Origin: a virus
IMG/VR virus record: IMGVR_UViG_3300010399_000040
Location: 3,427 to 67,426 of that record
Length of the DNA: 64,000 bases
Reading direction: 5' to 3' (one strand)
Shown: positions 1 through 23,832 of the stretch, in pieces
How positions within the stretch are numbered: the stretch's first letter is position 1
How the letters are laid out: every line of letters starts with the position of its first letter
Program-made: the position numbers and the translations under genes
Notes under the pieces: generated by a model
Databases searched by the model: none
What the model was told of the DNA's origin: nothing
Seen by the model: only the letters and a program-made list of their open reading frames with translations

Positions 1-198
1 AATCTTGTCGCCGATGTCGAATCCCTCCTCCTTCGCTTTCGGACCGACCGCCAGGACGGTGGCCCAAAGTGAATACGTCACGCTAACGTCAGCTAACACG
101 ATGCTGCCGACTTTGGTCGTCGGCTTATCGCGCTGCGCCACGATGCGGTTCATGTGAGCTTCAAACTTCGGCGCCTTCTTGTTTATCTCGGGTCTCAC
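1..198 (-). CDS. groES: GroES-like co-chaperonin (partial, runs off window start)
   Basis: Manual translation from GTG at 198, overlapping the upstream TGA: MRPEINKKAPKFEAHMNRIVAQRDKPTTKVGSIVLAD...ATVLAVGPKAKEEGFDIGDKI; matches the Cpn10 pattern. Not in the ORF track. Confidence 0.75.
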   Translation of the reverse strand, partial: MRPEINKKAPKFEAHMNRIVAQRDKPTTKVGSIVLADVSVTYSLWATVLAVGPKAKEEGFDIGDKI

Positions 199-1403
199 AA
201 TATCTCCTTGAAGGTCGGTAGTGGCACTATGAACTTCCCACCGCGAGCTAGCCACTCACGCTCGCGCAGGAGGAACTCGCTGATGAACGCGTAAGGGAGG
301 ATGAGGAAGCGCTGCGCGCGCCTCCGTCCGAACTCCTCGTCGTGTATCGGTATGTCCGTTCCGACCGTCTTGCGGCCGTGCTTCTCCACGCTCTTGTCGA
401 CAGCTCCGTCGATGAGCGACCTGTCGAACCCGTACCACTGGAGGATCGTGTTGCCCTTCGTCGATGCGCCGTAGACCCACACAAGGTGATGTCGGCTGAC
501 GTAGTCGACGCATCTGTCCCGTTGCTCGCACAGCCGACGGAACCAATCCTTCCACATGCGAGGTTGCGTAATCTCTTGCTCGACACCGCGGGCGAGCTGC
601 ACGTTCAAGCTTTCAGGTCCATCGCCTCCAGCGTGCCTCACGAACAACCTGTAGCTCTGCCCGTTGCAGTCGTTCGTTTCGACGTCAAATATCTCCAGAC
701 CATGCGATGCAAAGAGTCGGTCGAGCGAGCGCAGTGTGTAGAACTCCAGATGTTCGTGGCACAGGTTGCCTACGTCCATCATCTGGTACATGTTGTACGC
801 GCACATGAGCTGCGCGATGAACACTCCGTCCTTATGCAGGACGTGTGCGACGTCGCGTATGAATTGGTTCGGGTCTTCGAGGTCGTAGAACATGCCGAGC
901 GCCGTCACGACCTTGAACTTCGTGTCCGCGAAGCTACCGAGAGCTCCGACGCTCCAGAAGTCGCTCACGAGCATGCTTAGCCCGCGCCGACCGTCCTCCA
1001 CAAGGTTGAGAGCGGGCTCCACGCCCACCCTCACTGTGTCAGGTCGCATGTATCCGAGCTGACGCAGGAACGTACCGTCGTTGGAACCTATGTCGAGGAT
1101 GCTGTCGCCGTCAGCGAGGTACTGAATCGAGACGCTCGCGAGGTCGCCTAGATGCTTCCGCATCCAGTCGGTAGTGCCGCTGCGATACCAGTAGTGACGC
1201 GTGTACATGAAGTCGCTTGGCGCGGTGTGGAGCTGCTGCACGAGCGTGCAGTCGCTGCACATGACGACGTCGATGGGCACCTTAGCGTCGTCAGGTGGCT
1301 GCGTTTTGACGAAGTCGCTGACATGCTGAGCACCTAGCGAGAACAACTCCTGTAGCGAGCGCGAGCCGCACGCCCTACACGTGCTACGAGTCGTGTACGT
1401 CAC
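195..1403 (-). CDS. NDP-hexose C-methyltransferase-like SAM-dependent methyltransferase
   Basis: N-terminal CRAC...CSDC zinc site, LDIGSNDG SAM motif, HEH, YGASTKGNT C-terminal domain; GTG start at 1403 overlaps upstream stop (track start 1424). Confidence 0.85.
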   Translation of the reverse strand: MTYTTRSTCRACGSRSLQELFSLGAQHVSDFVKTQPPDDAKVPIDVVMCSDCTLVQQLHTAPSDFMYTRHYWYRSGTTDWMRKHLGDLASVSIQYLADGDSILDIGSNDGTFLRQLGYMRPDTVRVGVEPALNLVEDGRRGLSMLVSDFWSVGALGSFADTKFKVVTALGMFYDLEDPNQFIRDVAHVLHKDGVFIAQLMCAYNMYQMMDVGNLCHEHLEFYTLRSLDRLFASHGLEIFDVETNDCNGQSYRLFVRHAGGDGPESLNVQLARGVEQEITQPRMWKDWFRRLCEQRDRCVDYVSRHHLVWVYGASTKGNTILQWYGFDRSLIDGAVDKSVEKHGRKTVGTDIPIHDEEFGRRRAQRFLILPYAFISEFLLREREWLARGGKFIVPLPTFKEIL

Positions 1404-1591
1404 TTTAGAAGTTTCTCCAACCATCGCTCAGCCTCCTCCGCACCCTGTCTGAGCACGCGCCGAGCCCACGCGTCCAACGCGTTCAACTTCGCTCTGCGCT
1501 CCTCGCAGCAGCAGTCGCCGATGAGCGCCTTCACTCGCTGCTCAGTCACGCCCGCAAGCGAAAGCGCCTTCTGCACGTAGTCTCCGAGCAT
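1400..1591 (-). CDS. small Cys-containing hypothetical protein
   Basis: MLGDYVQKAL...DCCCEERRAKLN; stop coupled to next gene start. Confidence 0.55.
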   Translation of the reverse strand: MLGDYVQKALSLAGVTEQRVKALIGDCCCEERRAKLNALDAWARRVLRQGAEEAERWLEKLLK

Positions 1592-2015
1592 GCTCCACCA
1601 GAGCTCCATCGCCGGAAGTCAGTTCGGTACATCCGAAGCACGCGAGGCCGACGACGTCAACGACGTACGGACCGACGCCCGGTAGGTCGCGCAAGTCCTT
1701 CCACGTGTCGGTGAGGAACACCTGCGAGAAGCGGACGAGTCGCGTCGCGCGAGTGTGTTGGAAGCCGAGTGGTCGGAGCAGATCAGCGAGCTCGCGGCGG
1801 TCAGCCTTCGCGAGCGACGGAGGGTCGGGGTAGCGAGCGAGGAGCTTCGCGAGCACCGGTTGCATCGCTACGCGCCGCGTGCGGTTCAGCAGAATGCTCG
1901 CGACGCACACGCGCCACGGGCATCCGCCGAGCCCACACTGTATAGGGACGGCGTCGAAGTCCAGCTCGTCCGTCGTAGCGAGCGTCAGCACGCGCTCGCG
2001 GGGCAGAGGTATCAC
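1542..2015 (-). CDS. HhH-GPD family DNA glycosylase (endonuclease III/MBD4-like)
   Basis: PWRVCVASILLNRT, LLRPLGF, LRDLPGVGPYVVD helix-hairpin-helix motif; GTG start overlapping upstream TGA. Confidence 0.8.
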   Translation of the reverse strand: MIPLPRERVLTLATTDELDFDAVPIQCGLGGCPWRVCVASILLNRTRRVAMQPVLAKLLARYPDPPSLAKADRRELADLLRPLGFQHTRATRLVRFSQVFLTDTWKDLRDLPGVGPYVVDVVGLACFGCTELTSGDGALVEHARRLRAEGAFACGRD

Positions 2016-2437
2016 CGTAGCTCCTTCAGCACTTGGAGGTGCTTGCACGCGCCGTTGGTCTTGAACTGCCAGCAGGAGCACGCACCGCCGACGACAGTGT
2101 GCTCCTCCGCGTCGTCGTGGGTGCCGATCACGCTCCAAGTGTCGGGTCCTACCTTGCAGACAGCGAAGGTCTGCGCGTTACACACCTTCAGCACGCGCCG
2201 ACCCTCGACCACGTCGAGGATCACTTTGCGCTGTAGCGGCGTCAGCTGCGCTGCCTTCTTCGCTATCCTGTGGAGCTTCGGCGGCTTCGGCTTCCTCGGT
2301 GGCACCGGCACCTCGCCGAGGTAGGAGTTCGCGTTGACTCTCGCGAGCAACTCCCCGATCGTCTCCTTCGGCTTGTGCCCTGTCGTGTAACTGCTAGCGA
2401 GCGTCCTACCTTCGCTGCTCGGGTCGTGGTTAGCCAT
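2012..2437 (-). CDS. SWIM zinc-finger protein
   Basis: CSCWQFKTNGACKH; start moved to ATG 2437 because the upstream part of the track ORF is a ribozyme. Confidence 0.7.
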   Translation of the reverse strand: MANHDPSSEGRTLASSYTTGHKPKETIGELLARVNANSYLGEVPVPPRKPKPPKLHRIAKKAAQLTPLQRKVILDVVEGRRVLKVCNAQTFAVCKVGPDTWSVIGTHDDAEEHTVVGGACSCWQFKTNGACKHLQVLKELR

Positions 2438-2454
2438 CGCGACGTCTCTCAGAG

Positions 2455-2515
2455 CGACCTGGCTCATCAGCGTGCGGCGGTCAGCACGCACAGACGCCCT
2501 TGCGGGCGTTTCGCC
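2455..2515 (-). ncRNA. type II hammerhead ribozyme HHR1 (GUC, cut 2493/2492)
   Basis: GGC-GAAA-CGCCC(GCAA)GGGCG-UC|UGUGCG(UGCUGACCGC)CGCACG-CUGAUGA-GCC-AGGUCG; loop UGACC pairs with tail GGUCG. Confidence 0.92.
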
Positions 2516-3421
2516 TCACTTGACAATCGCAGGTATCGCAGCCTTCGCGTGGTAGTTAAGCGAGGTCGGCTCCTCCTTGCGCCATGCGTTCCACGCGTGG
2601 AGGCACTTAACGTACATCTCACGGGAGGCGACAATCTTACGTTCTATTCCGGATCGCCTCGTCATTGAAGCTCTTACGAGGAACCGTGCGAGCACCCTCG
2701 TCGGACACATGTTGTCCGGCGCAGACTCGTCCTTCACTTTCGCCCAGAACTCCGTCGCAGCTCCTCGCGTCGAAGAGCGATCGAAGGTCGCCATCATCGC
2801 GCGCACTACAGGTTCGCGGAGCATATGCTTCGCTGGAGACATAGCAGACTTCGTGTCGCTGCTGCCGCAGAGCTTCTTCAGCCAGAGGCAGAAATCCTGA
2901 CGCTCGATGAGCTGCTCAGCTCTCTCCGCGTGGGGCACGCGCGCTATCTCTGCATCAGACCACTTCAAGTTAGCTGCCGCCGACACCGTGAGGTTGATGT
3001 ACTTCGTACCGACGTCTTTCAGCTCCGGGATCGTAGCAGCGAACGACAGGTTGACGTCGCTATGCGTCCTGCTGGACAAGTTGCTGTCGTAAGTGGCGTA
3101 CAACATAGCCGCGTCGTTCAACGTGTCGCACTTCCACCGCTCCAGGATAACGTAGAAATCAAGAGGGAGCTTCTCCTGTGAGCCCAGCATAACTGACGTG
3201 TGCTTGCCGTTCACTCGGTACGTGCAGTTAGTCTCCTTGCAGAGCACCGACGCCCACGTGACAGGGCGAAAGTTTCCGTCCTTCAAGATGCGGCGGTACA
3301 CCAGCAACCGTCGTTCGCTCAACGGACGATCGTGCGGCGCCGGTTCCATCTCCACGAACTCCTTGACCAGCGCCTGCGTAGGCAATATCGTCCTCGGTTT
3401 CTCCATCTGCGACCATGCCAT
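2516..3421 (-). CDS. ParB/DGQHR-like N-terminal domain protein
   Basis: DRPLS...RVNGKHT resembles the DGQHR motif; GAGG RBS. Confidence 0.5.
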   Translation of the reverse strand: MAWSQMEKPRTILPTQALVKEFVEMEPAPHDRPLSERRLLVYRRILKDGNFRPVTWASVLCKETNCTYRVNGKHTSVMLGSQEKLPLDFYVILERWKCDTLNDAAMLYATYDSNLSSRTHSDVNLSFAATIPELKDVGTKYINLTVSAAANLKWSDAEIARVPHAERAEQLIERQDFCLWLKKLCGSSDTKSAMSPAKHMLREPVVRAMMATFDRSSTRGAATEFWAKVKDESAPDNMCPTRVLARFLVRASMTRRSGIERKIVASREMYVKCLHAWNAWRKEEPTSLNYHAKAAIPAIVK

Positions 3422-3440
3422 TGCAATCTACCTCTGCGAG

Positions 3441-3501
3441 GGAACTGCCTCCTCAGCAGCGAGAGTTCATCCTCGCTGGACGCCCTTTCGGGCGTTTCGG
3501 C
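3441..3501 (-). ncRNA. type II hammerhead ribozyme HHR2 (GUC, cut 3479/3478)
   Basis: GCC-GAAA-CGCCC(GAAA)GGGCG-UC|CAGCGAG(GAUGAACU)CUCGCUG-CUGAGGA-GGC-AGUUC; pseudoknot GAACU/AGUUC. Confidence 0.93.
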
Positions 3502-3705
3502 TCACTCCTCGTCGGTGTCCTCCGTCACTACCATCTCGTTGATGGACTCCCTCAACTGCACGACCTCATAGTCGTCGATGTTTGGCTCGCCGTCGAACTC
3601 GCTCAACTTATCGTTGAGAGCATCGTTCGCGGCGTCCTCCGTGTCGTAACTGCCGTACACGCAGCAGGCGCTCACGTGGTTGATGCCGTACTTCATCGCG
3701 ATCAT
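3502..3705 (-). CDS. small acidic hypothetical protein
   Basis: ORF with GGAGG RBS; stop abuts HHR2. Confidence 0.6.
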   Translation of the reverse strand: MIAMKYGINHVSACCVYGSYDTEDAANDALNDKLSEFDGEPNIDDYEVVQLRESINEMVVTEDTDEE

Positions 3706-3716
3706 CCTCCGGGGTT

Positions 3717-3746
3717 AAGATACTGTCTCTTATATGCGAAAGTCTA
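3717..3746 (-). promoter_or_regulatory. candidate internal sigma70 promoter
   Basis: TAGACT-N18-TATCTT in an AT-rich intergenic gap. Confidence 0.35.
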
Positions 3747-4349
3747 CCTCACACCTCCGATCAGCTGAGCCACGATCCGGTCGGCGCACACAGGGCCGAT
3801 GCCACGTGTGACGCTCTCCGGCGTAGTCAGAGGCCGACCGCAGCATCCGCATCGGCCCTCGTGGTGTATCCTGAAACCGTTCGCTTCGATTACGTCGAGT
3901 TCGTCGGCGAACAGACGCTTCAGCACCTTGTTGAGCAACTTCACAGGGAAGCTGTCGAGGGAGTAGCTGCTCCTCCCAGTGACTCTGACTTGGCCGTCGA
4001 CCAACTTGCCGACGTACGTGTAGTCGGCCGTGTTGTTGGGGCCCGTCAAAAGCTTTACGAAGTAGGCCACTGGCCAGTTACCGTTCGCCTCCACGCGTTG
4101 CGCCCTGTAGGTGTAGTGTCGTGCTTCCGTCGCGCGGTAGCGCTCCGGTATCTCGACGGTGAAGATAGCGTCACCAGCTAGGAGCCAGCTACTGGAGAGT
4201 CGAAAGCTTTCGGTTGAGCTCTCTGGCCTCGGCGTGGGCTCGCTGACGGTCTCCTGTGACGAAGACGACGTCGAACCATCCGTCAGCGCAGACGAACCCG
4301 ACGAAGAACGCTCTTTCGTCTGGGCATACAACGACTTGGTACACGACAT
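3744..4349 (-). CDS. DUF6011-like zinc-ribbon protein
   Basis: C-terminal CGCCGRPLTTPESVTRGIGPVCA. Confidence 0.75.
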   Translation of the reverse strand: MSCTKSLYAQTKERSSSGSSALTDGSTSSSSQETVSEPTPRPESSTESFRLSSSWLLAGDAIFTVEIPERYRATEARHYTYRAQRVEANGNWPVAYFVKLLTGPNNTADYTYVGKLVDGQVRVTGRSSYSLDSFPVKLLNKVLKRLFADELDVIEANGFRIHHEGRCGCCGRPLTTPESVTRGIGPVCADRIVAQLIGGVR

Positions 4350-4369
4350 GGTACTCTCTTCCAGCGAGG

Positions 4370-4429
4370 GAACTGCCTCATCAGTGCGGAGAGTTCATCC
4401 TCCGCAAACGCCCGTGAGGGCGTTTCGGC
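4370..4429 (-). ncRNA. type II hammerhead ribozyme HHR3 (GUU, cut 4407/4406)
   Basis: GCC-GAAA-CGCCC(UCAC)GGGCG-UU|UGCGGAG(GAUGAACU)CUCCGCA-CUGAUGA-GGC-AGUUC. Confidence 0.93.
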
Positions 4430-4639
4430 TCAAGTTTTTATTGTCGATTCCAACAAGAAGCCTATTGAACTCTTCTTCGTCCGCTCCAGACACTTGTCAC
4501 ACACTGCCAGGCCGCTACCCCTTGGTCCGCCTACATTCTCGCCGCCGAACTCAAATCCAGCTGTGAAAGGTTCATCGCAAAAATCACACATAGGCCATTC
4601 ATCTTTGACAGATAGCCTCCGTATGCGTCGAATCTGCAT
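4430..4639 (-). CDS. small zinc-finger protein
   Basis: CDFC...CDKC; GGAGG RBS. Confidence 0.6.
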   Translation of the reverse strand: MQIRRIRRLSVKDEWPMCDFCDEPFTAGFEFGGENVGGPRGSGLAVCDKCLERTKKSSIGFLLESTIKT

Positions 4640-4787
4640 GCTTCACCTCCTCTCCTGTGAGGGTATATGTCGGAGCTTCCTCTCCTTCCACCCACGTGTA
4701 GAAGTTCGGTAGGTTGTTCATCCGCAGGAACTCCTGCCGCTCCTCGAACGGCAGGAGTTCCGCGATCTTCTCAAGCTCGGTCCGCAT
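4599..4787 (-). CDS. hypothetical protein
   Basis: ORF MRTELEKIAELL... overlapping neighbours. Confidence 0.45.
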   Translation of the reverse strand: MRTELEKIAELLPFEERQEFLRMNNLPNFYTWVEGEEAPTYTLTGEEVKHADSTHTEAICQR

Positions 4788-4980
4788 TCGCCACCGCCTC
4801 GTGGAACTCGCCACGGTAGTAGGCCGCCACCACCTCGTTCAAGGCGTCAGCTACCATCGCAGCGACGTCGCCCAACGGAACGTTGCCTCCGCCGGCGTCA
4901 GCTTGGTCCACTTCCAACTCGCCGGAGACGATTAGCGTCCTATCCGGCCTCATGGAAGCAGTGAAAGGTCTCGGGTACAC
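4771..4980 (-). CDS. hypothetical protein
   Basis: GTG start after GAGGAG RBS, downstream of HHR4. Confidence 0.55.
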   Translation of the reverse strand: MYPRPFTASMRPDRTLIVSGELEVDQADAGGGNVPLGDVAAMVADALNEVVAAYYRGEFHEAVANADRA

Positions 4981-4996
4981 ATTGCTCTCCTCATGT

Positions 4997-5067
4997 TGAG
5001 GGGACTGCCTCATCAGTCGGAAGCATTTCAAGCTTCCGAAACTTGGAGCAGAGCTCCAAGTTTCGGC
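4997..5067 (-). ncRNA. type II hammerhead ribozyme HHR4 (GUU, cut 5040/5039)
   Basis: GCC-GAAA-CUUGGAGC(UCU)GCUCCAAG-UU|UCGGAAGC(UUGAAAU)GCUUCCGA-CUGAUGA-GGC; loop UUGA may pair with downstream UCAA. Confidence 0.9.
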
Positions 5068-5068
5068 G

Positions 5069-5479
5069 TCAGATCGCGAGAATCTGCTTGAACTTCTTAA
5101 TCGTGTCCATGTGAGGATTGCGATAGAGCACGTAATCACCGTCTCCGACCTTGACGAGCAGATCGCGTTCGTACTCACAGCCCCGCCACGACCCGTGCAG
5201 CCAACCGACGACGTTCTTGTTCATCCACGCGCTGAACGAAGGTTTACTCGCCAACTCTTGGGCTTCCTGCCGCTCTTCCTCAGTTGCACCACTGGGAGTC
5301 GAGTACTTCGCTTCGATGCTCTTGAGACGTTGCTCCTCAACTGGCGAACGGAGAGCGACTGGAATGAGCGCCTGCAGATCGCTGAAAGTGCCGATCGACC
5401 TCATCTGCTTGAGGATGCTCTTGGTGAGCTTACAGGTCCGCAACTCCGCTTCGCCAGTCCGGACAATGACATCTGCCAT
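5069..5479 (-). CDS. hypothetical protein
   Basis: ATG after AAGGAG RBS (MADVIVRT...). Confidence 0.6.
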   Translation of the reverse strand: MADVIVRTGEAELRTCKLTKSILKQMRSIGTFSDLQALIPVALRSPVEEQRLKSIEAKYSTPSGATEEERQEAQELASKPSFSAWMNKNVVGWLHGSWRGCEYERDLLVKVGDGDYVLYRNPHMDTIKKFKQILAI

Positions 5480-5568
5480 GGTAAAACTCCTTGTTGAGCT
5501 CTGCTCGGATTGAGTCAGTAGCTCGTGTAGTGCTGGCTCCGGGCTCCAGCACAGCGCGAGACACTGCG

Positions 5569-5787
5569 TCAGTGCCACCAGCACACCTCGCAGATCGGGC
5601 ACACGAGGGTGTGACCATGCTGCGTGATGACTACCTTCTCATGGGCGTCGTCGTACCTCCAGCACTTCGGGCACTCGTGACCTGGGTCGTGACCCAAATC
5701 AGCGAGTCGCCGACCAGACTCAGTGAACATCGCGCAGTGGAACTTGACCCTGTCGCACAGGGCGGGTAGAGAGTCCATCTCTTTCAT
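5569..5787 (-). CDS. small Cys/His-rich zinc-binding protein
   Basis: HECPKC...CPIC. Confidence 0.55.
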   Translation of the reverse strand: MKEMDSLPALCDRVKFHCAMFTESGRRLADLGHDPGHECPKCWRYDDAHEKVVITQHGHTLVCPICEVCWWH

Positions 5788-5798
5788 TCTTCGCGAGG

Positions 5799-5860
5799 GA
5801 CCTGCCTCGTCAGGCGACGGAGGTCGTACCGTCGCGACACCGCTTGTGCGGTGTTTCGGC
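5799..5860 (-). ncRNA. type II hammerhead ribozyme HHR5 (GUC, cut 5836/5835)
   Basis: GCC-GAAA-CACCGC(ACAA)GCGGUG-UC|GCGACGG(UACGACCU)CCGUCGC-CUGACGA-GGC-AGGUC; pseudoknot GACCU/AGGUC. Confidence 0.93.
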
Positions 5861-6429
5861 TAGAACTCACCTGTGTAATTCCTGAGCTTCATCGCATCGG
5901 CCTCTCGGCCGTTGTCGCTGAGGTAGTCGCAGTACACGTCTATCGGCAATCGTTCGTCTGGGTTGTCGAGGATCGCTTCCAAGAGAGCGTAGTGGTCGCG
6001 CCCAGCGAACGATCCGGCGTTCTTCGCTTGGGAGTAGAGTAGAAGCAACTTGAGGAGGTCCTTGCGGCACTCTTTGTCGGTCACTGAGTAGTTGTCGCAG
6101 TCGGCGTTCGCCCTCGCGACACCCGCGGCATTGAGCTGCAGTCGTACGGGAGCTAACCACTGCCTCAGTTGCGCCTCATCAAGTCGCTTAGTCTCGGCGG
6201 AAGCTAACTCGGGAAGGCGAGCTACGATGTGCATCACTGCCTCGAGCACTTGAGCGCGCCTGAACCGACGCCCCAAGAACACCGCTGTTCGGGGACCGCG
6301 GAGGTTGACGTATATCTCGACTCTGTTTCCGACGTGTATCGTTGCGCTGTAATAACCATGCGCTTCTAACCTCGCGTTCACACCTCCGGCGTTGAGCGAC
6401 TGGACGACGGCGTCCAAGAAGTCCTGCAT
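5860..6429 (-). CDS. protein with C-terminal TIGR02996-like domain
   Basis: ALLEAILDNPDERLPIDVYCDYLSDNG; ATG 6429 after GGAGG. Confidence 0.65.
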   Translation of the reverse strand: MQDFLDAVVQSLNAGGVNARLEAHGYYSATIHVGNRVEIYVNLRGPRTAVFLGRRFRRAQVLEAVMHIVARLPELASAETKRLDEAQLRQWLAPVRLQLNAAGVARANADCDNYSVTDKECRKDLLKLLLLYSQAKNAGSFAGRDHYALLEAILDNPDERLPIDVYCDYLSDNGREADAMKLRNYTGEF

Positions 6430-6446
6430 GAACTCTTCCTCCGGAG

Positions 6447-6513
6447 CGACCTGGCTCATCAGCACGTGGAGGTCGTTCCACGTGGACACCGGGCTCTCAC
6501 CCGGTGTTTCGCC
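6447..6513 (-). ncRNA. type II hammerhead ribozyme HHR6 (GUC, cut 6485/6484)
   Basis: GGC-GAAA-CACCGGG(UGAGAG)CCCGGUG-UC|CACGUGGA(ACGACC)UCCACGUG-CUGAUGA-GCC-AGGUCG. Confidence 0.93.
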
Positions 6514-6960
6514 TTACTTCGTGATACCAAGCGCTTTGAGTTGCTCCTTGACCCGCTCGGCTTCCGCCGGGTTGGTCGCGAGCAGCGTCTTGAGCATCTC
6601 GGTCACCGAATCGGCCGTCACGGCCTTCGGAGCGCGAGGCGCCTTGCCGATCTCCTCCGCAGTGCCACCGAGGTGGTGGAGCAGCGGAGTGCCGACAGTC
6701 ATGAAGTTGTGACTCACGACAAAGTAGGTCTTTCCATGGAGGTCGACCTTGAACGCTCGCCGTGGCCCGCTGTCGCGCGCGCTCGCCGCCTTCACCGCCT
6801 CCTCCGAAGTGGCGAAGATCGCTGGAAGGTCCTTCCAGCTCGTTTTCTTCTCCTTCTTCGGAGCGTCACCGGCCACCGGGACCTTCGCGTCCCCACCCTT
6901 GTGGGTGGTGGGAGCGGTCTGGGCTTTCGGGGAAGCGGGGGCCGTCTTGACATCTGCCAT
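6514..6960 (-). CDS. Ala/Lys-rich hypothetical protein
   Basis: ATG after AGGAG (MADVKTAPASPK...). Confidence 0.6.
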   Translation of the reverse strand: MADVKTAPASPKAQTAPTTHKGGDAKVPVAGDAPKKEKKTSWKDLPAIFATSEEAVKAASARDSGPRRAFKVDLHGKTYFVVSHNFMTVGTPLLHHLGGTAEEIGKAPRAPKAVTADSVTEMLKTLLATNPAEAERVKEQLKALGITK

Positions 6961-7014
6961 TGTAGAGCTCCTGAACGCAGCTTCAGTGGGTGCTGCTGGA
7001 CCCGTACCGAGGAA

Positions 7015-7079
7015 AACCTGCCTCGTCAGAGTGGGTAGGTTAACTCCCACCTACACTGCACTATATGCAGTGTTTCGGC
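7015..7079 (-). ncRNA. type II hammerhead ribozyme HHR7 (GUA, cut 7052/7051)
   Basis: GCC-GAAA-CACUGCA(UAUAG)UGCAGUG-UA|GGUGGG(AGUUAACCUA)CCCACU-CUGACGA-GGC-AGGUU; pseudoknot AACCU/AGGUU. Confidence 0.9.
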
Positions 7080-7084
7080 TCGCA

Positions 7085-7303
7085 TCACTTGATCGAGAAC
7101 TCCTTAGCCGTCTCCTCGCGGTACTTCTTGTAGAGGATGGAGTACGACGGGGAGTAGTGGCAGCTCAACTCGGGGAACACTTCGCGATCGATGTCACGGA
7201 AAGTCGCGCCTTCGAGTCGCTTCTGAGCGACCTCGTCGGTCAAGTACTTCTGGACACCGCTAGGGAGCTTGTTGAAGTCGCGGAGAATGGACTTAGTCTG
7301 CAT
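7085..7303 (-). CDS. hypothetical protein (first gene of early operon)
   Basis: ATG after GAGGTG RBS (MQTKSILRD...). Confidence 0.6.
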   Translation of the reverse strand: MQTKSILRDFNKLPSGVQKYLTDEVAQKRLEGATFRDIDREVFPELSCHYSPSYSILYKKYREETAKEFSIK

Positions 7304-7330
7304 AGAGCACCTCGTGTATTTGAGTGAGAG

Positions 7331-7392
7331 GAACTGCCTCATCAGTGCGGAGAGTTCAACCTCCGCAGAGCAGTCACGAGACTGCTTTCGGC
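7331..7392 (-). ncRNA. type II hammerhead ribozyme HHR8 (CUC, cut 7368/7367)
   Basis: GCC-GAAA-GCAGUC(UCGU)GACUGC-UC|UGCGGAG(GUUGAACU)CUCCGCA-CUGAUGA-GGC-AGUUC; G15.2-C16.2 covariation. Confidence 0.92.
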
Positions 7393-7609
7393 TAGATGTG
7401 GGTGGCCGCTCAGGATCGACCCGTAGGTCGCTCACCCGTCCACCTTGTGTCGGCCTCGGTCGTCGCTGCCCACTTTCCGTCGTGGGTCTTGCCCAGCGCG
7501 ACTCCGACCCGAATTGTCAAAGATATGTCATCAAGGAGTTAGAGGGTCGAGTCAGCAGAAGGATTCTTCGTCTCTTCTCGCTCTCTTTCTCGCTCCATAC
7601 ATTAGATAC

Positions 7610-7637
7610 ATCATAGCAGTGAAAGTTTCAGAGTCAA
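7610..7637 (-). promoter_or_regulatory. sigma70-type early promoter
   Basis: TTGACT-N16-TATGAT with extended -10 TG, upstream of the ribozyme-punctuated operon. Confidence 0.65.
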
Positions 7638-7803
7638 CAGTTATTTTTAAGTCTTGACTTGCAAACGACTTAGGTCTCGTTCTCCAGGTTCAATCCTGGT
7701 ACCGCCGATCCGGGGATGATATAAACCCCGACCCGCCGGAGATATCAGTCCATGGATCATCCAGGGAGAACTGGGATTGATACCGTGTACCGCTAGAGGT
7801 GAT

Positions 7804-14625: not shown

Positions 14626-16748
14626 TTACCAGTGGCGTCGCAGGAGAAGCCTAACTTCTCCACTATCGCTCTGAACGTCTTAATGTTCACTTGGTCCAGG
14701 TTCTGACCCATCGACCATCCCTTATATGCAGAGTAGACGTCAGCTACTTTACATTTTGCTCCTTCTGCTCGCTCCAGACGATCCGATGCGAACAGCGAGA
14801 CGCTGTCCTGAGTTCCTTTGTACTCCTCCGTCGCTCTGCTGACTTCAGGAGTGTCACCAAGCCCTTCGCGCTGCCACAGGAAGCACCCCTCGACCATCCA
14901 GCTGAGTATACCCGGAGCTTCGTTCTGCAGCTGAGCCGCTAGCGACGTGTCCTGTTTAGCGCCTTCGAAGACGCGAAGGAACGGAACGAGCTTCAACCGC
15001 GACCAGATGGCTATATCGACGCCCTTCACTTTAGGCTCGCAGTTGGTGCAGAGGATCAGCTTGTGCGACGGTTCGAAGTACCAAAAGTCTTCGTAGAGCC
15101 TGCGCGCTTTGATCTGGTCGCCACCTGTCACGCGCTTGACTAGCTCCTCGTCTAGGCGCGCACCGTCTCCTGTCTCAAGGTCAGCGACGAAACGCTTGCC
15201 GTAGAGGCTCACTAACTTCGTAGGGTGCTGCTCACCCCTAGCTACAGTGAGGAAGCCGGAGGGAGTCGTACCGCTGTAGTCCTGACCGAGCACGGTCATG
15301 ATGGCTTTGACGAATGTCGACTTGCCGTTGCGCCCGACGCCGTGGAAGATCGGAAGGACGTGCTCCTTCACGACGCCCGTGAGGCAGTAACCCATCAACT
15401 TCTGCACCCACGACACAGTCAGACGGTCGGAGAAGACTTCGTCGAGGAACTGCATCCAACGCGGCGCCTGCGCGCCTTCGACGTACTCGGTCGGGCATAG
15501 GTTGGTGACGCGGTCGGATGGGTCGTGGTCCAACAGCTCTCCGTTGCGTAGGTTCAGCTTACCGTTCGCGCAGTTCAACGTCCACGGGTCTTTGTCGAAG
15601 GCTCTGTAATCGACTGAGAGAGTCGGTTCGGATTCAGCTAACGTACGCGCTCCGCGTATGCTCCGCTCATCCTCGTGGCGTCGGATGGCTTGCATGAAAG
15701 CCAGCTTCGACTTACGTCGTCTCTGCACATCCTCGTCGTCGCTCTTGGCTAGCTTGCTCATAGACTCGCACGCCTTCGCCATCCGGTGCTCAAGGACTTC
15801 CTTCTGAAGCTCCACTACGTACTTCTCTGCTTCTTCGCGAGTCCAGTGAGTGCCCGTCCAGCGGAGCCATCCCCACACCGCTGAGTGGAGTATGCGACCC
15901 TCCCCCATGCGAGCGAGGATGCGAGCGTTCCCGAGCTCAGTCAGCGGTTCGTGACGGTTGAGCGGTCGGTACCCGTACGGCTCAGCCCAGTAGAGTATAG
16001 TCCGGGTCGTGAGGCCTCCGTCAACGAACGTATTCCAGCGCTTCTTGCACTCCCCAGGAACGTACTTCTCTACGCACGTCGCGCTCCACTTGTCCCAAAG
16101 CTCCAACATGGAAGTGTCACCCGAAGCGTTGTGGAGCGCCATCCCGACGCCTATCCACTTATCGTATTCGTACGCTGGGAGGAAGCCAAGAGCTTCTGTG
16201 ACTTGTTGAACGTCAGGTAGCTTGAGAGTCGGGCGAAGCTCCTTCTCCAGTTGCTTTATCATCAACCCGCTGTAGTAGTCGAGCAACCACACAGGGAGCT
16301 GAGCTGGAGGAGATTCGTTGATCCAGGAATAACCCGGAGAAGGAGGCAGAACTGTGTACGCACCCGTCGACTGCAAGCGGAGCTCGTTGTGCTCCCCCTC
16401 GCCCGTCCACAGTGTGGAGGTAGTCACGCCGTCGCACCATTTGAGGAGCCAACCACGCCCACCTGACTGAGTGGCGAACTCGGACGTGTCTGGGCATCCG
16501 CCGAGCTTCTGGAACTGCTCCAGCCCACCAGGTCCGTCCACGTCGATGCGGACTACACCCGAGACTCCACCTAGAGCTAAGCCGATGAAGGCGTCCGGCC
16601 AGTCCGACCACCACTGTTTGACCTGAGCTTCGTCTGCTCTCTCCGTCTGGTACTTCTTCCATGGGACGTGGGGCCTTCTCTTGTCGTGGAGCGGGAATAC
16701 GCTCCATCCGCGCTGACAGTAAACCAGCGCCGCTTCCTTGAGCGACAT
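14601..16748 (-). CDS. Prim-Pol/PriCT-2/D5-type SF3 primase-helicase
   Basis: GWSVFPL, IDVD, YDKWIGVGMAL, NCANG, GVGRNGKST Walker A. Confidence 0.92.
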   Translation of the reverse strand: MSLKEAALVYCQRGWSVFPLHDKRRPHVPWKKYQTERADEAQVKQWWSDWPDAFIGLALGGVSGVVRIDVDGPGGLEQFQKLGGCPDTSEFATQSGGRGWLLKWCDGVTTSTLWTGEGEHNELRLQSTGAYTVLPPSPGYSWINESPPAQLPVWLLDYYSGLMIKQLEKELRPTLKLPDVQQVTEALGFLPAYEYDKWIGVGMALHNASGDTSMLELWDKWSATCVEKYVPGECKKRWNTFVDGGLTTRTILYWAEPYGYRPLNRHEPLTELGNARILARMGEGRILHSAVWGWLRWTGTHWTREEAEKYVVELQKEVLEHRMAKACESMSKLAKSDDEDVQRRRKSKLAFMQAIRRHEDERSIRGARTLAESEPTLSVDYRAFDKDPWTLNCANGKLNLRNGELLDHDPSDRVTNLCPTEYVEGAQAPRWMQFLDEVFSDRLTVSWVQKLMGYCLTGVVKEHVLPIFHGVGRNGKSTFVKAIMTVLGQDYSGTTPSGFLTVARGEQHPTKLVSLYGKRFVADLETGDGARLDEELVKRVTGGDQIKARRLYEDFWYFEPSHKLILCTNCEPKVKGVDIAIWSRLKLVPFLRVFEGAKQDTSLAAQLQNEAPGILSWMVEGCFLWQREGLGDTPEVSRATEEYKGTQDSVSLFASDRLERAEGAKCKVADVYSAYKGWSMGQNLDQVNIKTFRAIVEKLGFSCDATGKWYTGMKL

Positions 16749-16765
16749 GCATCTACACCCTGTTG

Positions 16766-16837
16766 TAGTGGAGCGGACGGGAGTCGAACCCGTTTTTCTT
16801 CAGCCTACTGGACTGAATAATACGACCGGTACACCCC
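16766..16837 (-). ncRNA. tRNA-Ala/tmRNA-like element lacking D stem and canonical anticodon arm
   Basis: GGGGUG.../CGCUCC-A acceptor with G3:U70, T arm ACGGG-UUCGACU-CCCGU, central 7-bp hairpin. Confidence 0.5.
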
Positions 16838-23569: not shown

Positions 23570-23832
23570 TCCTTCTCCGTATTGCGCAGGTAAGTGAGCA
23601 TGAGCCTAAGGACAGTCTTAGCGCCCATCACTCGGTACTTGACACCGTGCTCCAACCACGATATGTAGCACTGGTTCGTGTCGCACAGCTCAGCTACTTC
23701 GTCCTGGCTACGCGATCCTCGCATCTCCATCAGCACTTCAGGATGCTCCCTGACGTACGTTTCGAGAGTAGCTAGCGCGTCCTCCTGCTTGAGCTGTCGA
23801 TCCAGAGCTTCTACGTAGTCGACGATAGTCAT
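23413..23832 (-). CDS. XRE-family HTH regulator
   Basis: SQDEVAELCDTNQCYISWLEHG. Confidence 0.75.
   Translation of the reverse strand: MTIVDYVEALDRQLKQEDALATLETYVREHPEVLMEMRGSRSQDEVAELCDTNQCYISWLEHGVKYRVMGAKTVLRLMLTYLRNTEKEWTRLPTEPERRSKSTLRSRAKSRNACGTTRKRSLSQTKPPGEPTPPTESPR

Follow-up and report, generated by a model that had tools for sequence, protein, structure and literature searches.

Type II hammerhead ribozymes abutting stop codons in an uncultured tailed phage: an eight-copy array and its probable role in mRNA punctuation

We examined a stretch of 64,000 nucleotides (nt), here called the window, that spans bases 3427-67426 of the 67,426-base-pair (bp) IMG/VR record IMGVR_UViG_3300010399_000040, which carries direct terminal repeats and is rated complete. 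The genome is that of an uncultured 67-kb tailed phage. A structural scan of its whole length revealed eight type II hammerhead ribozymes (HHR1 to HHR8), all on the minus strand and packed into 4.9 kb, where they flank blocks of one to three genes; none was found elsewhere. Seven of the eight lie at or next to the stop codon of the preceding open reading frame (ORF). This stop adjacency is genuine, and phage type II hammerheads normally show it, so that it is not a peculiarity of this phage. We think it probable that the array serves as mRNA punctuation in an accessory-gene operon, providing hairpin-capped messages together with genome compaction.

Eight hammerheads and their stop codons

The catalytic core is intact in every copy, with CUGANGA, GAAA, the A15.1-U16.1 pair and an H17 other than G (Table 1). 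All eight form a three-way junction in which stems I (6-8 bp) and III (6-9 bp) are closed by loops and stem II is open-ended; stem II has only 3 bp, with non-pairing bases on its flanks, and is inverted (GGC/GCC) in HHR6 and HHR1. Loop I and the 3' tail can be joined in each copy by a pseudoknot of 4-5 bp, whose partners change together between copies (GAAC/GUUC, AACCU/AGGUU, GACCU/AGGUC, UGACC/GGUCG, UUGA/UCAA); in HHR4 the tail partner is displaced 7 nt further downstream. Stem I and tail are nearly identical among HHR2, HHR3 and HHR8. The Rfam family RF02276 reports three copies at the default threshold, six at E up to 10 and seven in a search of the phage's own genome, HHR7 being never reported; four scores reach the gathering score of 37 bits and three fall below it.

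The original prediction had listed the lower seven ribozymes and claimed that their stem II begins at, or a few nucleotides beyond, the upstream stop codon. The distances it gave proved exact for all seven, with gaps from HHR1 to HHR7 of 0, 0, 0, +1, -1, 0 and +5 nt, and in HHR5 the G of TAG is indeed the first base of stem II. HHR8 is an extra copy outside the region that it covered; it has the same architecture and keeps the context UA-GCC, with no ORF upstream. On the other side, the distance from stem II to the next start codon is 32, 59, 23, 16 or 25, 26, 25, 25 and 23 nt from HHR8 to HHR1. Except at HHR7 and HHR8, this space fits little beyond the pseudoknot tail and a ribosome-binding site.

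Stops might stand near ribozymes by coincidence, and the window itself offers only a small number of cases. We pooled these eight hammerheads with 51 of other phages (n = 59) and compared them with a background expectation of about 1.9 stop trinucleotides per position. In 18 hammerheads a stop occurs at gap -1 and in another 14 at gap 0, giving 32 of 59 where about 3.8 were expected, and the survey of 105 hammerheads described below agrees. Chance placement was rejected on these grounds, and its probability is negligible.

Table 1. Features of the ribozyme region in order of transcription, with window positions; bits are RF02276 scores, and "lock" is the tail 4-mer discussed in the text
Feature	Position	Strand	Preceding stop (gap, nt)	Stem II start-end	H17, predicted cleavage 3' of it	Bits	Tail elements and remarks
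Terminator-like hairpin	7741-7726	-					
Sigma-70-like promoter match	7610..7637	-					TTGACT, 16 nt, TG-n-TATGAT; weak consensus match
HHR8	7328..7393	-	no upstream ORF	7392-7336	C7368	44.4	in 5' leader; pseudoknot tail 7334-7331; lock 7331-7328
Gene A	7085..7303	-					72 aa; no family
HHR7	7009..7080	-	TGA 7087-7085 (+5)	7079-7020	A7052		stem II strands 7079-7077/7022-7020; no Rfam report; pseudoknot tail 7019-7015; lock 7012-7009
Gene B	6514..6960	-					148 aa; no family
HHR6	6444..6514	-	TAA 6516-6514 (0)	6513-6453	C6485	34.5	stem II GGC/GCC, strands 6513-6511/6455-6453; lock GCUC 6447-6444
Gene C	5860..6429	-					189 aa; no family
HHR5	5795..5861	-	TAG 5862-5860 (-1)	5860-5804	C5836	37.7	lock 5798-5795
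Genes D, E	5069..5787	-					D 72 aa, start 5787 or 5778; E 136 aa, ATG 5479
HHR4	4996..5068	-	TGA 5071-5069 (+1)	5067-5007	U5040	26.8	pseudoknot partner 4999-4996; lock 5001-4998
Genes F, G, H	4430..4980	-					F 69 aa, GTG 4980; G 62 aa; H 69 aa, two CxxC pairs
HHR3	4366..4430	-	TGA 4432-4430 (0)	4429-4375	U4407	47	lock 4369-4366
Genes I, J	3502..4349	-					I 201 aa, DUF6011; J 67 aa, acidic
HHR2	3438..3502	-	TGA 3504-3502 (0)	3501-3447	C3479	43.2	lock 3441-3438
Gene K	2516..3421	-					301 aa; single weak PHROG match
HHR1	2452..2516	-	TGA 2518-2516 (0)	2515-2461	C2493	34.2	stem II GGC/GCC; lock GCUC 2455-2452
Gene L	2012..2437	-					141 aa; first gene of the last predicted fragment
HhH-GPD glycosylase-like gene	1542-2015	-					after L
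Methyltransferase gene	195-1424	-					after L

Up to about position 23,600 the genes of the window are on the minus strand; beyond it they lie on the plus strand, across a structural block. The ribozyme region sits downstream of an HNH endonuclease gene, and genes resembling a family A DNA polymerase, a methyltransferase, thymidylate synthase and thymidylate kinase also lie upstream of it; on the map it is preceded by the glycosylase-like gene and a C-methyltransferase gene. The ORFs ahead of the ribozymes encode 67-301 amino acids (aa), and the genes between them mostly have no family match, apart from the DUF6011 gene and the small CxxC protein. The GC content at third codon positions (GC3) is 0.68-0.88 in 12 of the 13 genes checked, gene H being the exception at 0.49. 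A search for related loci with gene K and the DNA polymerase found no close relatives of the phage in viral contigs, and the top polymerase matches in the phage collection share about 28% identity. No other ribozyme class was detected in the window. ARAGORN found no transfer RNA (tRNA) or transfer-messenger RNA (tmRNA) across it, and two weak tmRNA-like matches at 16721-16837 (minus strand; 22.8 and 22.4 bits) are under the Rfam gathering score.

The stretch of about 250 nt ahead of HHR8 (7393-7646, minus strand) is without a convincing ORF. The promoter match about 215 nt upstream of HHR8 is a possible operon start, judged from its sequence; sites of this consensus number 2 in 12 kb, with 2.7 expected in shuffles. 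By analogy with synthetic 5' insulators, HHR8 would trim a leader of some 250 nt off the first message. Genes D and E are separated by an 88-nt spacer (5481-5568, minus strand), a place that could have held a ribozyme, but it has no match to ribozyme classes or tRNA. It is predicted to form a long imperfect hairpin (-32.8 kcal/mol), and on this model it may be another processing or terminator element.

Stop adjacency across phage hammerheads

We surveyed IMG/VR by scanning it with core patterns, and all counts that follow are among the matches listed from this one collection. After all three helices had been required and duplicates and one chimeric call removed, at least 129 structurally valid phage type II hammerheads remained, in at least 99 loci. 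An upstream ORF, defined as 50 or more open codons with their end no further than 300 nt away, is present for 105 of the 129. The gap between its stop and stem II is -2 to 0 nt in 45, 1-3 nt in 32, 4-10 nt in 14 and more than 10 nt in 14, so that the stop falls within -2 to +3 nt of stem II in 77 of 105; in 26 it overlaps stem II itself. Rfam, with 67 hits at E <= 0.01, confirms the presence of a hammerhead at 53 of the 99 loci. When Rfam coordinates alone are used (n = 55 with an ORF), the gap is at most 0 in 21 and 1-3 nt in 18, hence at most 3 nt in 39 of 55. The same scan of contigs from prokaryote genomes gave almost only chance matches, a valid hammerhead being held by 2 of 120 loci among the matches listed. 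One locus (L538, minus strand, about 924-1052 on the reversed locus) carries two type II hammerheads in tandem about 11 nt apart, both Rfam-supported.

The other two hammerhead types differ from each other in this respect. Type I resembles type II, with a gap of at most 3 nt in 24 of 32 (Mann-Whitney p = 0.54), whereas for type III this holds in none of 24, the gaps being 8-53 nt with no stop within 7 nt (p = 1.3e-9 against type II). After cleavage of types I and II the upstream fragment ends 3' in a ribozyme hairpin, but cleavage of type III leaves only 5-8 nt of single strand. It is type III that brings an additional hairpin: of its 52 hammerheads, 28 are preceded at a distance of 0-4 nt by a perfect hairpin of 5 bp or more, as against 3 of 66 of type I and 11 of 127 of type II. 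No two of these 28 hairpins have the same sequence; they group into 18 clusters with up to 10 members, and 26 of them would leave a 3' overhang of 5-8 nt. These observations share a common rule: directly after the stop codon comes a module through which the upstream fragment gets a hairpin on its 3' end. That the upstream product keeps stem III as a protective 3' hairpin, as the original prediction had proposed, gains comparative support from types I and II abutting the stop and type III adding a hairpin.

The extra hairpins of type III are GC-rich (examples are L140, L150, L168, L224, L274, L283, L305 and L326). The upstream stop lies mostly 4-13 nt before the hairpin or within it, and one hairpin family, GUGUCUUCAAAGACAC-like, recurs across many contigs.

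The spacing around type II ribozymes is tight on both sides, with a survey median of 26-27 nt from stem II to the start codon and a median 3' untranslated region (UTR) of 27 nt. Where the intergenic region has length to spare, the ribozyme is nearer the stop in 32 cases and nearer the start in 12, a bias that weakens to 20 against 12 when a more generous ribosome-binding site is allowed. In 101 of 130 hammerheads an A stands directly before stem II. This A persists with the stop 1-3 nt away (24 of 32) and without a nearby stop (31 of 39), and position 1 of the RF02276 consensus is also A.

Among the surveyed hammerheads 38 lack a nearby long ORF, and 26 of them nonetheless have a stop trinucleotide at gap -2 to 3 where 13.5 were expected; nine of these 26 stops close frames of at most 3 codons. 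Such orphan stops would fit a mobile cassette, in which ribozyme units spread as modules bringing their own UAG, UAA or UGA, so that adjacency is inherited; the conserved ribozyme sequence could then double as homology for the shuffling of small genes. The UA-GCC that HHR8 retains although no ORF ends there, the near identity of stem I and tail in HHR2, HHR3 and HHR8, and the recurrence of uaGCC and uaaGCC contexts in relatives on other contigs point the same way. However, the eight copies differ in stop (TGA, TAA, TAG) and in gap (-1 to +5), part of the enrichment stems from the A before stem II, and many orphan stops terminate frames of 9-47 codons, perhaps short genes. As no close relatives of the phage were found, there are no homologous junctions for comparison. 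We regard spread as a cassette as distinctly unlikely to be the cause of the adjacency.

A candidate tail helix and the terminating ribosome

In all eight copies the core segment G8-A9-10.1-10.2 can pair with a 4-mer that lies about 4-7 nt into the tail, for example 7340-7337 with 7331-7328 in HHR8. We call this pairing the lock helix; it excludes stem II and the core. The pairs are GAGG/CCUC in six copies and GAGC/GCUC in the two with an inverted stem II. A scan with the tail motif gave 22 related ribozymes on other contigs (loci L599-L610), and among co-resident relatives that the search pattern had not selected the helix is kept in 10 of 11, which adds a GAGA/UCUC type. The tail 4-mer is a mimic of the stem II strand next to the stop, and on these models it could form a covarying, subfamily-specific helix that is new here. 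Its predicted stability of -2.6 to -3.6 kcal/mol is similar to the -3.2 kcal/mol for closing stem II, so that the two states would be nearly balanced. Relatives of the same subfamily also occur as arrays, with at least 11 copies on a 64-kb contig (L601, L602, L609, L610) and at least three on a 31-kb contig (L603-L605); most copies on both contigs show stop adjacency.

In the general survey the lock is found in 8 of 129 hammerheads with G-U pairs allowed and in 4 of 129 with Watson-Crick pairs only, against 2.5 expected. It was accordingly rejected as a general type II feature and, being rare outside the subfamily, cannot explain the general adjacency to stops. We also rejected the idea that the tail CCUC masks the downstream Shine-Dalgarno sequence, since the 4-mer covaries with stem II (GCUC, UCUC) and not with the ribosome-binding site; moreover, in HHR6 the CUCC and GGAG are directly adjacent, which makes a hairpin impossible. 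The simplest reading of the lock is a hairpin formed after the cut, which would block re-pairing or religation and organise the new 5' end.

The mRNA channel of the ribosome extends about 9 nt beyond the A-site codon. With this footprint, a ribosome on the stops of the array would cover the 3-nt strand of stem II, G12-A14 and the first bases of stem III, in agreement with the claim of the original prediction that stem II and GAAA would be covered. Because a stop-bound ribosome encloses the stem II strand, termination and the active fold would be mutually exclusive. Transient melting of the ribozyme by a terminating ribosome would thus be a physical consequence of the layout, and at most a candidate regulatory device.

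The original prediction had gone further and suggested that cleavage may depend on upstream translation. If so, the stem II strand would be free only without a terminating ribosome, and the cut fraction would follow upstream translation. In the subfamily studied here, an unlikely refinement has the tail lock capture the partner strand for as long as the ribosome is present: a stop-bound ribosome would shift the ribozyme to its inactive lock form, and each junction would be cut only while no ribosome terminates on the upstream gene. The geometry suits such gating, with the stop in reach of the core (gap of at most 10 nt for the footprint given above) in 91 of 105 surveyed hammerheads and overlapping stem II in 26 of 105, and so does the mild bias of the ribozyme towards the stop. 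The lock, with its occurrence in 8 of 8 copies and 10 of 11 relatives, its three compensatory pair types and its near balance with stem II, provides a candidate switch. Against this, HHR8 has the same design and lock without an upstream ORF, and a 4-bp hairpin should reopen fast and hence make a poor kinetic trap. A hairpin formed after the cut explains the lock equally well, and the rarity of the lock beyond the subfamily leaves the general adjacency unexplained. None of 24 type III hammerheads comes within 7 nt of the stop; their cores lie beyond the reach of a terminating ribosome, which argues against occlusion as the general cause of adjacency. Other clustered phage hammerheads are reported to cleave during plain in vitro transcription, where translation is absent, and also in Escherichia coli (PMC3088659). 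The gaps themselves gather at the lowest value open to them, as compaction would have it, and the comparison lends no support to a dependence of cleavage on upstream translation. We therefore hold ribosome-gated cleavage, and with it the ribosome-driven switch into the lock, to be unlikely, and translation-coupled cleavage to be a less likely possibility than hairpin protection.

Translation might instead assist folding, with ribosomes stopping upstream coding RNA from mispairing with the stem II strand and so promoting cleavage. According to a crude thermodynamic model, the native nested fold is less probable with the real 120-nt upstream flank than with shuffled flanks for 8 of 8 copies. Neither the pseudoknot nor co-transcriptional folding enters this model, however, the shuffles kept base composition only, and the probabilities are tiny in all contexts; we set this test aside as too crude. 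HHR8 has no translated upstream sequence. We give assisted folding a lower probability still than a mobile cassette.

Probable mRNA punctuation in an accessory-gene operon

In the explanation that we favour, mRNA punctuation, each ribozyme would cut itself co-transcriptionally 3' of H17, producing a leader and eight messages that carry genes A; B; C; D and E; F, G and H; I and J; K; and L onwards with the distal genes. Each upstream fragment would end 23-33 nt past its stop in the stem III hairpin (6-9 bp) plus one nucleotide with a 2',3'-cyclic phosphate. The stem III hairpins on these 5' products have predicted stabilities of -11.0 to -16.8 kcal/mol. The downstream fragment would start with a 5'-OH and the stem I hairpin, with its own ribosome-binding site about 16-60 nt on. 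As the 3-bp stem II is the sole joint between the two fragments, their immediate separation is expected.

The same scheme offers a reason for the adjacency, which we infer to be compaction. Nothing is required between the ORF and the hairpin module, and selection for compactness would therefore shrink the gap to zero or to overlap. The A before stem II would be a feature of the ribozyme that doubles as the last A of UGA or UAA or as the A of UAG. The ribozyme then effectively starts one base earlier and the stop overlaps it by 1-2 bases, which is the minimum possible spacing. That gaps pile up at the smallest possible value is what compaction predicts.

Several points weigh against mRNA punctuation, or narrow its basis. 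Cleavage in vivo in this phage is an assumption made from sequence, and the protection of ends draws on the general knowledge that hairpins, 2',3'-cyclic phosphates and 5'-OH ends slow bacterial RNases. RF02276 scores only half of the array at or above its gathering score. In the survey, for which IMG/VR was the sole sample, with counts among the matches listed, the loci beyond the 53 of 99 confirmed by Rfam depend on the structural filter alone, and some hammerheads share a contig or family, so that the counts are not fully independent. The asymmetry towards the stop is something that compaction by itself would not predict, a mild point.

The proposed arrangement has both natural and engineered counterparts. 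In the early region of phage T7, intercistronic cuts by RNase III leave a stable 3' hairpin on the upstream message. The present array would share with these sites an intercistronic cut and a hairpin-ended upstream message in a phage early operon; unlike T7, where a host enzyme is needed, the RNA here would cut itself, leaving a 2',3'-cyclic phosphate and a 5'-OH. RiboJ is reportedly a synthetic ribozyme insulator, and HHR8 is like such synthetic insulators in lying in a leader with a hairpin between the ribozyme core and the ribosome-binding site. In pRAP, an engineered system for ribozyme-assisted polycistronic expression (PMC9872166), as reportedly in RiboJ, ribozymes that cleave themselves in the 5' UTR or in the space separating two cistrons give separate messages with defined ends. 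Both are engineered with other ribozyme types, whereas the natural array is flush with stop codons and its type II topology lets both products keep a terminal hairpin. A hammerhead in an intergenic UTR is also known from a fusarivirus, where it takes up all 66 nt of the intergenic region, with its cleavage site 7 nt ahead of the following start codon (PMC13725137). Those mycovirus hammerheads, unlike the present ones, belong to eukaryotic RNA viruses, are of type I and have a proposed role in translation initiation; that paper sets DNA phages aside.

The array belongs to a known kind, the clustered phage hammerheads, which have been known since 2011. Clustered hammerheads flanking single genes were described in prophages, with processing of polycistronic RNA as the proposed role (Perreault et al. 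2011, PMC3088659). The arrays of that paper share with ours the type II fold, the pseudoknot between loop I and tail, the very short stem II and several same-strand ribozymes that flank small non-conserved phage genes; eight copies within 5 kb distinguish the present array. Small, non-conserved flanked genes and the processing idea are established (Perreault 2011; reviews by de la Pena 2017 and Weinberg 2019), and the reviews still call the function of phage and bacterial hammerheads open. The term 'stop codon' is absent from the main texts of PMC3088659, PMC8782182 and PMC6765202, which in their accessible parts describe neither stop adjacency nor its generality, the type III contrast or the lock; the supplements of Perreault 2011 may bear on the adjacency. 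In the open-access literature, supplements excluded, we found no statement of a stop-codon adjacency rule or of the type III hairpin.

Taken together, the rule would turn a vague notion of processing into a specific design principle with three parts: hammerheads of types I and II begin at the stop codon, type III brings its own hairpin, and every upstream fragment ends in a hairpin. It would give annotators a simple expectation of where such a ribozyme lies. The lock helix of the subfamily would serve as a concrete handle on the interaction between ribosome and ribozyme at these junctions. Were the ribosome-gated ribozyme true, mRNA punctuation in these phages would be a read-out of upstream translation.

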